Positions 2,451-36,363 are shown, numbered from the stretch's first letter. The stretch: DNA of 39,645 nucleotides from an uncultured archaeon (GCA_964475515.1 CAYYWW010000001.1:12611-52255), one strand, 5' to 3'. Numbers and translations are program-made. The notes: a model not told the origin generated them from the sequence alone.

Positions 2451-2878
2451 TAATAAATTTGTGCTCTATGTGGTTCTTAAACTATCTCATCCTTCAATAT
2501 TATTTTGCGAGGGCCTATTAAAGCGGATCTTCTCAGAAATTCTAGATTGGTAAAATCCCTAGTGTTTATAATTTCCAAGAATATATTAAGGATTGATAAA
2601 CGGTATTTTTTGCTTTGAATATGACCTTGTCACCATTTTCGACTAATACATCATATATTATCTCAGGGTTTTTCAGTCTCATAAAGATACGTGACTGGAT
2701 AACCTTCGATTATTTTCAGTTCTCTTACTAATTTTTTACGCAACTTCATAGCTAACATTGAATAAAACATAAAAACTTTCAAAATATTATCTGATCTAGC
2801 ATTTTGAGTAAAGAATAAACATCTAATTGCAATAAAACATTTAAACTTGTCTTTCTATTTTGTTAGTATGGTGATAGT

Positions 2879-3157
2879 GTGAAGTCCAAAGGATTCAGAT
2901 CAGGAACGAGAAGAAAACTGAAAAAAAATATCAGAGAGAAATTTAAACCTGAAAATTACATAAGAAAGTTTTCCCTTAAAGATAGGGTTGTTATTGATCC
3001 TGATCCTGCTTCACAGAAAGGCATGCCGTTCCCGAGGTTTAAGGGAAAGGTCGGCGAAATCGTAGGAAAAAGAGGAGACGCCTACATAATTAAAATAAAG
3101 GACGGGGACAAAGTGAAACAGGTTATAGCAAGGCCCGAGCACATAAAACCTATTTGA
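2879..3157 (+). CDS. rpl21e: 50S ribosomal protein L21e
   Basis: KSKGFRSGTRRKL N-terminus and KGMPFPRFKGKVGEIVGKRGDAY SH3-like core. GTG start. Sits in the conserved archaeal L21e-RpoF-DUF655 order. Confidence 0.9.
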   Translation: MKSKGFRSGTRRKLKKNIREKFKPENYIRKFSLKDRVVIDPDPASQKGMPFPRFKGKVGEIVGKRGDAYIIKIKDGDKVKQVIARPEHIKPI

Positions 3158-3195
3158 TAGGTAAAAGATATTAATAAATAAAACAAGTGTTGTAT

Positions 3196-3525
3196 ATGGA
3201 AATAAAGAATGAAAAATACGTAACAATGGCAGAAGCTAAACAATTGCTCAAAGAAAAGGAAAAAACAAAAGAGCTTGGTTATGAGCAAAAAAATGCCTTG
3301 GAATTTCTCAATAAATTCTCAAAGTTAAAATTAAAGGATGCGAAACAGATGTTTGAAGAACTTAAACAAATACAAAAACTGAAAGAAAAGCATATAGTAA
3401 GTATCATAGATCTTTTACCAGCGGATAAAGATGACTTAAGAGTGCTTTTCGCGAATGAGATAATAAGCTTATCAGAAGAGGAGAAAAAGAAAATATTGGA
3501 CATAGTGAAAAAATATGTTACGTAA
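3196..3525 (+). CDS. rpoF: DNA-directed RNA polymerase subunit Rpo4/F
   Basis: About 110 aa and helical, with motifs ...YVTMAEAKQLLKEKE...EQKNALEFL...HIVSIIDLLP typical of the Rpb4/RpoF family, in the conserved position after L21e. ATG at 3196 is preferred over the GTG at 3187 given by the ORF track. Confidence 0.8.
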   Translation: MEIKNEKYVTMAEAKQLLKEKEKTKELGYEQKNALEFLNKFSKLKLKDAKQMFEELKQIQKLKEKHIVSIIDLLPADKDDLRVLFANEIISLSEEEKKKILDIVKKYVT

Positions 3526-3571
3526 CAGAATTCTGTAAATTTTTTTTAATATAAACTTTAATTCTATAACT

Positions 3572-5265: not shown

Positions 5266-5407
5266 TGGGCTCGAGGGGATTTTCACATAAAAACGTGTTG
5301 AACCCCTGACCTTCGGCTTTTACGCCTTAGCTTGGCGGCCTTATAAGACCGACGCTGTAGTCTACCACTCCAATGGAGCGGATCTAACCAAGCTGAGCTA
5401 CGAGCCC
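5266..5407 (-). tRNA. tRNA-Ile(UAU), three-intron model
   Basis: Minus strand reads GGGCTCG-TA-GCTC-AGCTTGGTTA-GA[27 nt]GC-G-TCGGT-CTTATA[23 nt]A-GCCGA-AGGTC-AGGGG-TTCAA[17 nt]AT-CCCCT-CGAGCCC-A. After removing + coords 5356-5382, 5319-5341 and 5281-5297, a 75-nt cloverleaf forms with a perfect 7-bp acceptor stem and anticodon TAT. A TATA-like TTTATTAA lies about 30 nt upstream. No CCA is encoded. Confidence 0.75.
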
Positions 5408-8994: not shown

Positions 8995-9014
8995 AGTCAC
9001 GGTGAAACTCTCTT

Positions 9015-9125
9015 AAAAAGTGAATTTAAGCGTACCGAGAATGTTTTATAATTTAAAATGGTAAATCCATAAAAAACAGTAGTTTGCGAAATTAATTTTT
9101 TCATTTGTTAACAAAAAGTGAATTT
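9015..9125. repeat. 13-nt direct repeat AAAAAGTGAATTT, two copies (9015-9027 and 9113-9125)
   Basis: Two exact copies 98 nt apart, inside the only sizeable non-coding gap of the pilus-like locus. Confidence 0.6.
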
Positions 9126-9140
9126 TTCAAGAAATTAAAA

Positions 9141-9173
9141 CTGCGCAAGGCGGAAATTTTTAGACATGCGCAG
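9141..9173. promoter_or_regulatory. perfect 7-bp inverted repeat CTGCGCA-N19-TGCGCAG
   Basis: A GC-rich palindrome in an AT-rich spacer about 40 nt upstream of the 9214 ATG. A TATA-like TTTATAAATTTTA follows it. Confidence 0.35.
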
Positions 9174-9213
9174 TAAATTTATAAATTTTATTATTAGCTG
9201 TTGTAATTATTAA

Positions 9214-9633
9214 ATGATGAAAAAAATTAAGGCACAGACACTGGTTTTTGAAAATGTTCTGTTATTTGGAATAGGTGTTGCTATATTTGTTCTATGTTAT
9301 GCTGTTTTCACTTCGTACCAACTGTATTTTTCTGGTGTAGGAAATATCGACCAGATGAATAGAATAAAAAACATTATTACATCGAATGTGCTCTTTTTGG
9401 AAGAGAAAGAAACTGCAAATTCTTCAATCATAATAAGAATACCTAGAAAGATAGGTGGTCAAATATACAAGATAAAACTATCAAATGAGGGTGTAAATGT
9501 AAGTACATCAGATTCCTACGTTTTCTCTTCTCTTTATATATTAGACAATTCTTTGTATATTTCAGGAAAAACGACAAGCATCAAGGGCAAAGTTACAATA
9601 TATAAGAGAGGAAACAAAATTATAATAATATAG
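9214..9633 (+). CDS. putative minor pilin / pilus-assembly protein with N-terminal hydrophobic helix
   Basis: MMKKIKAQ|TLVFENVLLFGIGVAIFVLCYAVF, a basic tip followed by a helix. Lies immediately upstream of the ATPase (3-nt spacer). Confidence 0.45.
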   Translation: MMKKIKAQTLVFENVLLFGIGVAIFVLCYAVFTSYQLYFSGVGNIDQMNRIKNIITSNVLFLEEKETANSSIIIRIPRKIGGQIYKIKLSNEGVNVSTSDSYVFSSLYILDNSLYISGKTTSIKGKVTIYKRGNKIIII

Positions 9634-9636
9634 CCT

Positions 9637-16426: not shown

Positions 16427-16612
16427 TGGGCCCGCCGAGATTTCCAGCCTTCTTTGAAACTATTTCTGGAGTTTCTTTGCAACAATGAATCTGTAGAGAA
16501 AGCCTTTGAACTCGGGTCGCCAGCACCCCAAGCTGAAATGCTAGACCATTTTAGGAAGCAAGGTCTCCATTTCTTTATTAGGAAACCTTGCCTCAAGCTA
16601 CACCACGGGCCC
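16427..16612 (-). tRNA. tRNA-Pro(GGG), two non-canonical introns
   Basis: Minus strand reads GGGCCCG-TG-GTGT-AGCTTG[47 nt]GTCTA-GCAT-T-TCAGC-TTGGGGT-GCTGG-CGAC-CCGAG-TTCAAA[64 nt]T-CTCGG-CGGGCCC-A. Removing + coords 16547-16593 and 16441-16504 gives a 75-nt cloverleaf. The anticodon loop is intact. Confidence 0.85.
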
Positions 16613-18814: not shown

Positions 18815-19791
18815 TTACAGAAGCTCAGATATTCATAACCAGAAAGTGTAACAATAGGTGTAAATATTGTGCTCTCACACAAAAAAATTTACCGGAAAGG
18901 GAGTTAACAACAGAGGAGTGGAAAAGGACTTTTACTATCATGGATAATATTGGAATTAAAACGCTCAAAATTTTGGGCGGTGAACCCACTGTTCTTGAGG
19001 ATCTTCCAGAAATTCTGAGATTTTTAAATGAGGAAACAGACATAGATTACGCTATTCTTTCTAATTCAATTATCCCACGTGAAAAATTGGAAAGATTGGT
19101 AGAAGTTGGCCTCAAAGGTTATTTCGCTAGTGTGGATAACATTGATGGTCTTAAGAGTGTGGACAGTTATTCAACAAGAAAATCACATCTGGCAATTGAT
19201 GTTTTAGATTTTCTGAAACGAAGAGGTGTTAAGCTGCTGGGTGCTAATACTGTTATTCATAGAGGAAATTTAAGAAATCTTCCTATAATATTGGAATTTC
19301 TAACAGGGATGGGGATATGGATGAATATATGTGCTATGCATTATGGAAATGAAGATATAAATTGGATATTTAGATCTGAGTATTCTGAATTGGCGTTGAG
19401 ACCAAAAGATACTCAATTAGTGAAAGAAATTATGGAAAAACTAAAGGAAATGAAACATGCAGGTTACATGCTCGCTTGTCCAGATTCTTATTTGGATGGT
19501 TTTCCTGAGTATGGTATTGGTTTAAATTGGAAATGTGGAGAGTTTAGTCAATTAAGAGTAGATGCAGATGGTTCTCTTTTATTATGTCCCGACCTGAGAG
19601 GTGAGATGGGTAGGTTTAATATTCTTGAAATTGGTGAGAATGATCAATACTTAAGTGAAATTGAGGAGGCATGGTACAAAGACCCTGAAAGGGCAAGGTG
19701 TCCTGGATGTTATTGGAGTTCTATGTACAGGGCAGAAGTTAATAAAAAAATAGGCGGAGAATTCCAATTCTCAAAAGAAATTAAAACATAA
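18811..19791 (+). CDS. radical SAM enzyme with C-terminal auxiliary-cysteine (twitch/SPASM-like) region
   Basis: CNNRCKYC (CxxxCxxC), ILGGEPTV, then WKCGEF..VDADGSLLLCPD and RCPGCYW. ATGA overlap with the upstream gene. Confidence 0.85.
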   Translation: MITEAQIFITRKCNNRCKYCALTQKNLPERELTTEEWKRTFTIMDNIGIKTLKILGGEPTVLEDLPEILRFLNEETDIDYAILSNSIIPREKLERLVEVGLKGYFASVDNIDGLKSVDSYSTRKSHLAIDVLDFLKRRGVKLLGANTVIHRGNLRNLPIILEFLTGMGIWMNICAMHYGNEDINWIFRSEYSELALRPKDTQLVKEIMEKLKEMKHAGYMLACPDSYLDGFPEYGIGLNWKCGEFSQLRVDADGSLLLCPDLRGEMGRFNILEIGENDQYLSEIEEAWYKDPERARCPGCYWSSMYRAEVNKKIGGEFQFSKEIKT

Positions 19792-20110
19792 TGCCCCAGG
19801 AGGGATTTCCGTACGGCTTTTTATGGTAGCTTCCGCTTGCACAAAAAGCCGTAGAGCAAAAATACGCATTGAAGCGTATTTTTACATTTCTGCTCCACAG
19901 CTCTTTGTGGAAGTTGTTAACTCCTGTAAAGAGCTGTGCTTCGAACCCTCGACTTCCAGCTTTCTGCTCTTTCATAACCGTTTGTGACGGTTCAAATCTT
20001 CTAGTTGATTAGAAGGTTCACCGCAAGTGCTCTGGCACTTTAAACTTGGCTACTAAGTGATTTAACAATTCTAGTGTAGTAGCCAACCTATCCAACTGAG
20101 TTACTGGGGC
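19792..20110 (-). tRNA. tRNA, four-intron model; best fit tRNA-Arg(UCU)
   Basis: Minus strand has GCCCCAG...CTGGGGC-A acceptor, D arm ACTC-AGTTGGATA-G[48]AGT, anticodon arm CCAG[15]C-CTTCTA[48]A-GCTGG, variable AAGTC, T arm GAGGG-TTCGAA[134]T-CCCTC. Removing + coords 20040-20087, 20017-20031, 19962-20009 and 19806-19939 gives exactly 74 nt with all four stems Watson-Crick. TTTAAATA lies about 30 nt upstream. The acceptor, D and T arms are secure; the anticodon assignment depends on the 15-nt stem intron. Confidence 0.65.
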
Positions 20111-20181
20111 ATTATATTCTTCTATTTTTATTATCTATTTAAATATAATTCTGTTTGAAATGCTCAAATTTTACAATAGAA

Positions 20182-20952
20182 TCAGCGATTAATTTTTTCC
20201 CGCCCAACCTTTTTTGTGAAACTTATTAGTTTCTTTGCTTCCTTAAATGGATCTTCTGCTTTCTGGACAAGAGATGCTATATGAATTCCATCTGCACCTG
20301 CTTTTATTGTTCTTTCTATATCATTCAAATTTTTAGAAGAACCTGCACAAATGACAGGATGTTCAACAGTTTTTTTAACCAATTTAAACATTTCCGGTGG
20401 TGCTGGTCCCGGTGCACCAGAACCCCTTTCCAATATCGTTATTCTATGTCCCATCATTTTACCTGCAAGTGCGTAAGCAGCTGCTATTTCTGGTTTGTGA
20501 AGGAGTACAGGCTTCGCATCTCCTACCCAACCTACAGTTTCTCCAGGCTCTACAATAATAAGTGAAGTTGGCATTGCCTCTATTCCCATTCTTTTTATAG
20601 CAAAGGCTGACAAAGCGTGAGCACCTGTTATCCAATAGGGGTTTCGTGAGTTCATCAAACACATGAAATAAAGCGCATCTGCATATTTTGTCAAACCATC
20701 AACATTTCCAGGAAAAAGCACTATGGGTATTGAAACTTCTTCTTTTATCCTTTTTGCTGTTTCATTAAGCAAGTCTTGATCTATACCCAATGAACCACCT
20801 ATTAAAATAAAGTCGGCCCCGCCTTCATAAAACGCCTTTGCAAACTTTAATGAGTTTTCTATTTTATCAGCAGGGTCTATCAACCCAAAAAATGCGACTC
20901 CGTCCTTTTCTATTATTTCATACAGTCTTTTTTCCACAGCACCTATTTTCAT
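20182..20952 (-). CDS. geranylgeranylglyceryl phosphate synthase (PcrB/GGGPS family)
   Basis: FGLIDP, GGADFILIGGS, IVLFPGN, YFMCLMNSRNPYWI, ILERGSGAPGP. ATG at 20952 is preferred over the ORF-track TTG at 20964. Confidence 0.85.
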   Translation of the reverse strand: MKIGAVEKRLYEIIEKDGVAFFGLIDPADKIENSLKFAKAFYEGGADFILIGGSLGIDQDLLNETAKRIKEEVSIPIVLFPGNVDGLTKYADALYFMCLMNSRNPYWITGAHALSAFAIKRMGIEAMPTSLIIVEPGETVGWVGDAKPVLLHKPEIAAAYALAGKMMGHRITILERGSGAPGPAPPEMFKLVKKTVEHPVICAGSSKNLNDIERTIKAGADGIHIASLVQKAEDPFKEAKKLISFTKKVGREKINR

Positions 20953-35504: not shown

Positions 35505-35595
35505 AGCCCCGTGGTGTAGTGGTCAAGCATGCGAGGCTCTGGTGGTATAAAGCCGGTGAAACCTCGCGACCGCGGTTCGAATCCGCGCGGGGCTA
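35505..35595 (+). tRNA. tRNA-Gln(CUG) with one canonical (37/38) 18-nt intron
   Basis: AGCCCCG-TG-GTGT-AGTGGTCAA-GCAT-G-CGAGG-CTCTGG[TGGTATAAAGCCGGTGAA]A-CCTCG-CGAC-CGCGG-TTCGAAT-CCGCG-CGGGGCT-A. The A1:U72 pair is typical of archaeal tRNA-Gln. Intron 35543-35560 pairs AGCC with GGCT of the anticodon region. A T6 run follows. Confidence 0.9.
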
Positions 35596-35601
35596 TTTTT
35601 T
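35596..35601 (+). terminator. oligo-T tract directly after tRNA-Gln
   Basis: TTTTTT starts immediately after the discriminator base; archaeal terminators are typically oligo-T. Confidence 0.4.
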
Positions 35602-35687
35602 CTTTAATTAAAATGTTTTGTAATCCTATGGTTTAGAAACTCCACTACTTTGGATTTCATTAACTCAAAAATTAATGGATAGTGGAT

Positions 35688-35984
35688 TTATGACATTAAC
35701 TCTTCGCGATATCTTATTAGCTTCTCTTTATATCTCTCCAAAGCCCTGATGACATCATTGTATTCTTCAGAAAGATCTCCTACAGAAGCTATTTGCTCGT
35801 GGGTTTCATAAATTTTATGCTTTTCGTACATTTCCTTAAATTTTCTTTCAATATTCTCTACTTTTTCAATCTCACCGTCAATAGATGATTTTCCAAGCAG
35901 TCCCTCAACTAATTCAACTAATCTCTCTTCTATGTTTTTTTCTCCACCTTCGCCTGATGTTGAACCTGTGTGAGTATCACTCAT
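35688..35984 (-). CDS. acidic helical hypothetical protein (98 aa)
   Basis: Clean ORF with non-repetitive composition. No recognisable motif. Confidence 0.4.
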   Translation of the reverse strand: MSDTHTGSTSGEGGEKNIEERLVELVEGLLGKSSIDGEIEKVENIERKFKEMYEKHKIYETHEQIASVGDLSEEYNDVIRALERYKEKLIRYREELMS

Positions 35985-36231
35985 GAAGAGTGTTTGGTGG
36001 TAAATTTTAAAAACTTATCATTCTGATTTTAATAAAGATTTAAAAGTGTTTGTATCCAATTAAATGGAATGAGCCAGTGCTTTACATTTAGGCACAAGCA
36101 TATTATGCGATAAATTTCTAGCATTGGCTCTTGCTCGCCCTTCTTCTTGTTTCATATTTGGTGACTGGGCTATAAACTATAAATTTTCTAAAAATTTTCG
36201 GGCGAGCTAAAGCTATAGAGGGGGTGAAAGA

Positions 36232-36363
36232 ATGAAATATGACGATGGGAGCCGTGATGTATATGAAGTCAGAGCAGAAAGAAAACCATACCCACTGTGC
36301 CCACCGGATAAAGGGAGTGGAACTGAAGGTGAGTATTTAAAGATGAGAGAGATAGAAGACTAG
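36232..36363 (+). CDS. candidate 43-codon small ORF with strong Shine-Dalgarno motif
   Basis: GAGGGGGTGA lies 5 nt upstream of the ATG. Product MKYDDGSRDVYEVRAERKPYPLCPPDKGSGTEGEYLKMREIED. The stop overlaps the convergent gatE stop by 4 nt. No homology is recognisable by eye. Confidence 0.3.
   Translation: MKYDDGSRDVYEVRAERKPYPLCPPDKGSGTEGEYLKMREIED

Follow-up and report, generated by a model that had tools for sequence, protein, structure and literature searches.

Introns of archaeal tRNA genes are removed by an established pathway in which the endonuclease EndA cleaves the precursor and the ligase RtcB joins the exons. The endonuclease recognises a motif known as the bulge-helix-bulge (BHB), with two 3-nt bulges around a 4-bp helix, and the cuts fall at matching places in the two bulges, after the second bulge nucleotide; relaxed forms of the motif (hBH, HBh′) are recognised as well. 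In the Thermoproteales there are on average 0.84 introns per tRNA gene, and Pyrobaculum calidifontis carries 71 introns in 46 genes. Multi-intron tRNA genes have been described in the genera Pyrobaculum, Thermofilum and Caldivirga of this group (Sugahara et al. 2007/2008, as cited in PMC4090602 and PMC8450103), with a published maximum of “up to three” introns per tRNA gene (PMC8450103); a 2014 review gives three introns in Crenarchaea, a length range of 11-129 nt and medians of 12-25 nt (PMC4090602). Disrupted tRNA genes also occur in ARMAN/Micrarchaeota, together with an epsilon2 EndA (PMC3239211), and Kaneta et al. (2018) associated the L3-loop alpha4-type EndAs of several DPANN lineages with heavily disrupted tRNA genes and predicted further undiscovered ones in DPANN (PMC5829648). 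Nuclear tRNA genes of Cyanidioschyzon merolae contain up to three introns, each with a BHB, whose ordered removal has been followed experimentally (PMC3728597).

Here we report a 319-nt archaeal tRNA-Arg(UCU) gene of five exons and four introns on the minus strand (positions 19792-20110) of a 39,645-nt stretch of DNA from an uncultured archaeon (GCA_964475515.1, CAYYWW010000001.1:12611-52255; hereafter the window). The exons sum to 74 nt and the introns make up 77% of the locus. Comparative sequence analysis leaves us highly confident that this is a real and functional tRNA gene of the Aenigmatarchaeota (DPANN), with BHB introns at four sites. Like the Thermoproteales genes, it has its introns collinear in one gene, probably requires an ordered removal of close introns and is missed by standard finders; it differs in having four introns rather than three, in its AT-rich DPANN host as opposed to a hyperthermophilic crenarchaeon, and in the length of its introns (15-134 nt, 245 nt in total), the longest of which is slightly above the reviewed range. 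It shares the superphylum and the multiple, non-canonical introns of the DPANN genes described previously, but Aenigmatarchaeota were not among the genomes analysed in those studies and no four-intron gene was reported there (PMC3239211, PMC5829648). In C. merolae, too, a single gene can have a BHB intron at each of three places, the D stem, 37/38 and the T loop; however, these genes are eukaryotic and nuclear, have at most three introns and are in some cases permuted, which the tRNA-Arg gene is not. Breakpoints such as 30/31 and 37/38, and the same EndA/ligase chemistry, recall the split and tri-split tRNAs of Nanoarchaeum equitans and Caldivirga maquilingensis, but here the five exons are collinear within 319 nt, neither split nor permuted, and share one promoter-like box, so that splicing is expected to occur in cis. 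Full-text searches, including searches for Aenigmarchaeota/DPANN introns and with subscription journals outside their coverage, returned no report of a four-intron tRNA. The first-pass annotation of this DNA had placed four introns at the extreme of what has been described, and indeed the count is one above the published three (PMC8450103).

The window has a G+C content of 34.7% and encodes a thermosome, Pus10, GatD/GatE, an archaeal-type ThrRS editing domain, deoxyhypusine synthase and a PcrB-type GGGP synthase. The PcrB gene lies directly upstream of the tRNA-Arg gene on the same strand, and among its named homologues the closest belong to Candidatus Aenigmatarchaeota. Judged by its sequence, the host is a Candidatus Aenigmatarchaeota archaeon, a member of a DPANN phylum, in keeping with its earlier description as AT-rich and not Thermoproteales-like (about 35% G+C, closest named relatives Aenigmatarchaeota). 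Across 22 window genes, AGA accounts for 62% of Arg codons and AGG for 25%, and a tRNA-Arg(UCU) is thus needed; ATA makes up 67% of Ile codons in the window genes.

No strand had been given for the locus. The acceptor pair GCCCCAG/CTGGGGC plus A73 does bracket it as first described, and it does so on the minus strand, on which the 5′ end of the gene reads GCCCCAG-TA-ACTC-AGTTGGATA-G, the 3′ end TCCCTC-CTGGGGC-A, and GAGGG-TTCGAA lies internally. Since the acceptor stem and canonical D and T arms all fall on this strand, the original model is a minus-strand model, and every element of it can be found once the locus is read in that direction; a plus-strand reading lacks the D-loop and T-loop signatures, both of which the minus strand has. 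We number the minus strand m1-m319, where the window coordinate equals 20111 - m. In the order of transcription, the features are, with exon positions in tRNA numbering:

20136-20143, minus strand: TATA-box-like TTTAAATA, 26-33 nt upstream of the mature 5′ end, putative archaeal promoter
20088-20110, minus strand: exon 1, positions 1-22, with the acceptor 5′ strand, U8, the D stem 5′ strand, the D loop AGTTGGATA and G22
20040-20087, minus strand: intron 1, 48 nt, at 22/23, with a 10-bp inner hairpin and a relaxed outer helix
20032-20039, minus strand: exon 2, positions 23-30, AGTGCCAG
20017-20031, minus strand: intron 2, 15 nt, at 30/31, a complete miniature BHB
20010-20016, minus strand: exon 3, positions 31-37, CCTTCTA with anticodon TCT
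19962-20009, minus strand: intron 3, 48 nt, at the canonical 37/38 site
19940-19961, minus strand: exon 4, positions 38-59, with the anticodon stem 3′ strand, variable loop AAGTC, T stem 5′ strand and TTCGAA
19806-19939, minus strand: intron 4, 134 nt, at 59/60 in the T loop, with three internal hairpins
19792-19805, minus strand: exon 5, positions 60-73, with T60, the T stem 3′ strand, the acceptor 3′ strand and discriminator A73
19770-19791, minus strand: T-rich 3′ trailer TTATGTTTTAATTTCTTTTGAG, putative terminator

In-silico splicing removed m24-71 (48 nt), m80-94 (15 nt), m102-149 (48 nt) and m172-305 (134 nt) and left the 74-nt sequence GCCCCAGTAACTCAGTTGGATAGAGTGCCAGCCTTCTAAGCTGGAAGTCGAGGGTTCGAATCCCTCCTGGGGCA. 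ARAGORN calls this 74-mer tRNA-Arg(tct), and the cloverleaf is its unconstrained RNAfold minimum-energy structure, with 21/21 stem pairs Watson-Crick and an anticodon loop of CTTCTAA. The D loop AGTTGGATA and the T loop TTCGAAT are both canonical, and U8, A14, G18G19, A21, U33, G53, T54-A58 and C61 are all in place. CCA is not encoded and would have to be added post-transcriptionally. The first-pass model had predicted exactly 74 nt with all stems Watson-Crick and this anticodon loop, and the in-silico splicing that it had proposed as a check bears this out, with the ARAGORN call and the fold in its favour. Its four removals of 48, 15, 48 and 134 nt are right in length, as are the sites at 30/31, 37/38 and 59/60, but intron 1, which it had put within the D loop, instead splits the 3′ strand of the D stem, separating position 22 from position 23.

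The unspliced gene is invisible to routine tools. ARAGORN and Rfam at gathering thresholds did not detect 19792-20110 as a tRNA, and the locus gave no match to Rfam RF00005 (threshold 29 bits) even at E ≤ 10, as expected for a model confronted with four insertions. At this E-value the region 19600-20300 produced only hairpin-type miRNA/sRNA matches far under threshold, which we regard as spurious, and no Rfam intron family that would indicate a self-splicing group I or group II intron; the introns are 15-134 nt long. Inspection of the 134-nt intron for a box C/D sRNA (C box RUGAUGA, D box CUGA) of the kind encoded in the archaeal tRNA-Trp intron found no UGAUGA or CUGA, and there was no Rfam snoRNA match within the gene. 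In the JGI annotation a 64-residue ORF without a Pfam match overlies the tRNA-Arg introns (L001 3183-3377, window about 19808-20002), a spurious protein call made because the tRNA went undetected.

The same gene recurs in other assemblies and, with fewer introns, across the phylum. Two fetched JGI loci (L001 and L023) are one contig and carry a 319-nt gene identical to that in the window, and an independent ENA assembly (L003) differs by 1 nt, in an intron loop. A closely related locus, L004, has a PcrB protein 91% identical and the same gene order of PcrB, tRNA and radical SAM; its tRNA-Arg gene is 237 nt long, with introns at the same four positions. Between the two, the exons are identical at 73/74 positions (22/23 in exon 1) and introns 1-3 at 89/120 (about 74%; Fisher p = 1.5e-6 for the contrast), with intron 2 identical at 14/15, whereas intron 4 is 44 nt in L004 as against 134 nt in the window and cannot be aligned. 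In L004 the intron 1 hairpin shows one double change, A-U to G-C, and two wobble changes, all of which preserve its pairing. The TATA-like box recurs there at equal distance, and the first 17 nt of the T-rich trailer are identical as far as read.

Two Aenigmatarchaeota metagenome-assembled genomes (MAGs) from GTDB have the predicted junctions already joined. The first, L011, has two introns, at 37/38 and 59/60, and carries GGATAGAGTGCCAGCCTTCTA unbroken, which is exactly what the predicted exon 1-2-3 junctions give; the second, L016, has the canonical intron only and carries GGGTTCGAATCCCTCC unbroken, exactly the predicted exon 4-5 junction. Exon 1 is continuous with exons 2 and 3 in both, which are uninterrupted at 22/23 and 30/31. 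More distant syntenic relatives also have a tRNA-Arg(UCU) gene after PcrB, with one intron in L005/L006, L007/L008 and L040 and two in L038. Intron 2 is absent from L011, L016, L005, L007, L038 and L040, and L016, L005, L007 and L040 are uninterrupted at 59/60. The single 37/38 introns of these orthologues are 39-52 nt long and share one layout. With the Rfam tRNA model the one-intron orthologues score 49.6-54.9 bits, whereas the two- and four-intron forms are missed. When six spliced sequences are aligned, pairing holds in 98.4% of stem cells, and compensatory changes are seen in 4 pairs. Among these is A6-U67, which the four-intron lineage has where the other sequences have C6-G67; one of the two substitutions lies in exon 1 and the other in exon 5, at a distance of about 300 nt in the gene.

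Searches with single exons and introns gave the following picture. The exact 23-mer of exon 1 had no match in GTDB species genomes, and a 21-mer of exon 4 was identical in L011 and L016 as well as in nine unrelated bacterial tRNAs. A metagenome scan with the exon 1 pattern returned 17 loci, of which only L023 is this gene; the remaining loci, for the most part tRNA genes without introns, are bacterial or phage-like and unrelated. The metagenome collection that holds the organism's contig yielded no uninterrupted copy with this 5′ exon. Used as BLAST queries on the window and every fetched locus, the four introns found no further copies, intron 4 included, and thus no sign of a repeated mobile intron. 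In the history that we favour, the canonical 37/38 intron is ancestral, the T-loop intron is patchily distributed in the phylum, and the D-stem and anticodon-stem introns were gained in a lineage common to the window and L004. In a further pair of loci, L041/L042 (PcrB 70% identical), a 480-nt non-coding gap (2907-3387) follows PcrB where relatives have the tRNA-Arg gene; no tRNA was recognised in it by eye, and it could hold an even more disrupted tRNA gene, or none.

The BHB motifs offer a test of the splice sites: once the cloverleaf alone has placed the sites, the eight nucleotides that have to pair at each intron are determined. In the lines below, as elsewhere in this text, the hyphen within a bulge follows its second nucleotide:

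Intron 1: central helix GGAU/GUUU, 4/4 paired, G-U rich; bulges AG-G and AA-A
Intron 2: central helix UGCC/GGUG, 4/4 paired; bulges AG-A and AA-C
Intron 3: central helix CUUC/GCAG, 3/4 paired, with a U.C mismatch; bulges UA-A and AA-A
Intron 4: central helix UUCG/CGGA, 4/4 paired; bulges AA-G and AA-U

Among all same-length junctions in the window, 2.1% give 4/4 and about 16% give 3/4 or better, and the BHB search at each junction that had been proposed earlier accordingly turned out positive (4/4, 4/4, 3/4 and 4/4). The geometry is kept at all junctions in both the window and L004. The mismatch in intron 3 is U.C in the window and U.U in L004, and the same intron pairs 4/4 in L011, L016, L005 and L007. 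Intron 2 has a 3-bp outer helix and an inner helix of 2 bp closed by a tetraloop; intron 4 uses the 5-bp T stem as its outer helix, and the minimum-energy fold of the isolated T arm is the exact BHB. Positions 22/23, 30/31 and 59/60 are known non-canonical archaeal intron sites, with 37/38 the canonical one (PMC4090602).

Intron 3 has the anticodon stem as its outer helix, a stem that stays interrupted until intron 2 has been removed, and the motifs of introns 2 and 3 share nucleotides m96-98 and, in the anticodon stem, m76-77. The two BHBs are thus mutually exclusive, and these introns are probably removed stepwise, one after the other. Three features count against the reading of this locus as a functional spliced gene: the central-helix mismatch of intron 3; the relaxed helices (outer in intron 1, inner in intron 4); and the unconstrained fold of the whole precursor, which lacks the BHB helices, both of them weak, of introns 1 and 2 and is more favourable by about 7 kcal/mol than a fold on which the central helices of introns 1, 2 and 4 are imposed. 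The relaxed helices suggest that their sites depend on an endonuclease of broad specificity.

Two short motifs in the canonical intron deserve mention as observations in their own right. TAGAAG, a second element within the canonical intron at about 19999-20004 on the minus strand (m108-113), is a perfect complement of the anticodon loop CUUCUA, and the hairpin that it forms with this loop in the minimum-energy fold competes with the BHB helix; the element is conserved in L004, L016 and L005. Just upstream of the BHB 3′ half lie GUGAUGAAA in L004, CUGAUGAG in L016 and a degenerate GUUAUGAAA in intron 3 of the window (19971-19977, minus strand), which resemble a C-box/K-turn strand without a matching D box.

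Could four freely chosen deletions shape any structured, AT-rich 319-mer with a 7-bp inverted repeat into a tRNA? Eight free coordinates do open a large search space, and a loose acceptor plus T-arm scan yields 0.2 GC-rich matches per random window. Yet the canonical D-loop and T-loop sequences each lie within a single exon, the BHB helices occur exactly where the splice sites demand them, and the one- and two-intron orthologues carry the predicted junctions continuously, a comparative series that refutes coincidence and reduces its probability to practically nothing. An enlarged tRNA-like structural RNA that retains its inserts would account for the very stable fold of the whole 319-mer (z = -9), but the inserts evolve fast and change threefold in length while the exons stay fixed, are missing from orthologues and are each bounded by an EndA-type motif; moreover, from what is established of tRNA structure, a D stem, anticodon stem and T loop that all carry insertions should leave the tRNA core disrupted. 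We regard this reading, too, as exceedingly improbable. A spliced gene whose intron number or boundaries differ from those given here is a less extreme departure, for instance with a composite (nested) 134-nt or 48-nt intron or a junction shifted by one base. The 37/38 placement is ambiguous by ±1 in sequence, intron 4 has three separate hairpins and three times the length of its L004 counterpart, and intron 3 contains a second anticodon-complementary TAGAAG. The BHB register nevertheless selects a single placement at each site, one BHB per intron is enough, and the orthologous 37/38 introns of 39-52 nt share the layout of intron 3, all of which makes a different intron count or boundary very unlikely.

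The remaining alternative is that the locus is a former tRNA-Arg gene filled with insertions, which yields no functional tRNA; a decayed pseudogene of this kind had been named at the outset as the case that would overturn the model. The large intronic share, the blindness of standard finders to the locus and the mismatch in the BHB of the canonical intron could all be read in this way, and a second tRNA-Arg(UCU) gene, which may exist elsewhere in the genome, is likewise counted against functionality. Decay is, however, contradicted by exons that are almost unchanged between two species despite diverged and resized introns, by the compensatory A6-U67 pair that arose in the four-intron lineage itself, and by the intact BHB geometry at every junction in both species. 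No uninterrupted copy with this 5′ exon was found in the organism's metagenome collection, and exon conservation, the predominance of AGA among Arg codons and the conservation of promoter box and T-rich trailer together make a pseudogene very unlikely.

For a functional tRNA-Arg gene interrupted four times, the following pathway can be proposed. A precursor of about 320 nt would be transcribed from the TATA-box promoter, each exon-intron junction would form, as computed, a 4-bp helix between two 3-nt bulges, and EndA would cut after the second bulge nucleotide at eight sites, after which RtcB would join the five exons, RNase P and RNase Z would trim the ends and CCA would be added. The mature 74-nt tRNA would then read AGA, the genome's most used Arg codon. 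We infer transcription, cleavage, ligation and order of removal from the DNA and its predicted folds. Neither the window nor 312 kb of fetched loci yielded an EndA or RtcB gene, the EndA search being a tblastn of the fetched DNA with an approximate Methanocaldococcus EndA query. In asking for an EndA of heterotetrameric or three-unit type at such sites, the first-pass annotation goes beyond the literature, in which L3-loop alpha4 EndAs have also been linked to disrupted tRNAs (PMC5829648). We would predict a clonable splicing endonuclease of broad specificity in Aenigmatarchaeota.

The tRNA-Arg gene is not alone. A BHB-guided search and a scan of the window anchored on acceptor and T arms found two more hidden tRNA genes, for tRNA-Ile(UAU) and tRNA-Pro(GGG), and a tRNA-Gln gene is also interrupted:

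5266-5407, minus strand: tRNA-Ile(UAU), 142 nt, three BHB introns at 5357-5383 (27 nt, 22/23), 5318-5340 (23 nt, about 37/38 in the anticodon loop) and 5280-5296 (17 nt, 59/60)
16427-16612, minus strand: tRNA-Pro(GGG), 186 nt, two introns at 16549-16595 (47 nt, D loop, BHB 3/4) and 16441-16504 (64 nt, 59/60, BHB 4/4)
35505-35595, plus strand: tRNA-Gln(CUG), with A1-U72 and an 18-nt intron at 35543-35560 (37/38)

The anchored scan gave 4 GC-rich matches in the real window, compared with a mean of 0.225 in 40 Markov surrogates. In the tRNA-Ile gene the central helices are paired 4/4 at all three introns, and ARAGORN identifies the spliced 75-mer as tRNA-Ile(tat); the unspliced gene is missed by ARAGORN at default settings and by Rfam, and an “Arg(tct)” label that ARAGORN gave to a half-spliced form is wrong. 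The tRNA-Pro gene of L004 (14267-14449) has the same two introns and identical exons, and tRNA-Pro genes with only the T-loop intron (19-79 nt) and an unbroken D loop are found in L005 (12814-12967), L007 (12149-12268) and L038 (3767-3860); an Rfam run on L004, L005 and L007 missed the Pro genes. For the D-loop intron of tRNA-Pro, an alternative junction one base off pairs only 2/4 in its BHB, and we prefer the 3/4 junction, which has a long inner helix and leaves a D loop matching the orthologues. The tRNA-Gln locus was reported by ARAGORN as “Pro(tgg)” (91-93 nt), a label rejected because proper splicing gives Gln(CUG); the central helix of its intron is paired 3/4, with a U.U mismatch. The window thus contains 10 tRNA introns in 4 genes (Arg 4, Ile 3, Pro 2, Gln 1), with the heaviest interruption in the genes whose tRNAs read the most used codons, AGA and ATA. 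No ORF of at least 150 aa is present in 2451-3571, 8995-9636 or 35596-36359, and tRNA scans found nothing there.

T-loop introns at 59/60 occur in three tRNA families (Arg, Ile and Pro), also across distant Aenigmatarchaeota. Most end in ...GGAAA-T or ...GAAAA-T with a 3′ bulge of AA-U, while the bulge in L011 is UA-U. Within tRNA-Arg, the intron is present in the window, L004, L011 and L038 and absent in L016, L005, L007 and L040, a patchiness that may reflect repeated gain, loss or transposition between genes.

The mechanism proposed here is a known one, of BHB motifs, EndA and RtcB; what appears to be new is the number of introns and the phylum in which they are found. The documented ceiling per tRNA gene would rise from three introns to four, and extreme tRNA disruption would extend from the hyperthermophilic Thermoproteales to an AT-rich DPANN phylum. 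That we are dealing with the first four-intron tRNA and with an Aenigmatarchaeota lineage bearing the densest known load of tRNA introns (2.5 per gene in the window) is a claim to which we would give even odds. The natural series of genes with one, two and four introns, mostly in the same neighbourhood, should be useful for studying the gain of BHB introns. If the pattern holds genome-wide, the EndA of such organisms would have to tolerate very relaxed substrates, in a genome that is AT-rich and lies outside the hyperthermophilic Thermoproteales. There is also a practical bearing on the annotation of MAGs. Of the four tRNA genes in the window, three escape both ARAGORN and the Rfam tRNA model, and gene callers put spurious ORFs on them, so that the tRNA complements and completeness of such genomes are likely understated. 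Should this be true genome-wide, most tRNA genes of such DPANN genomes would be invisible to standard annotation, and the “missing tRNAs” of such MAGs would be artefacts.
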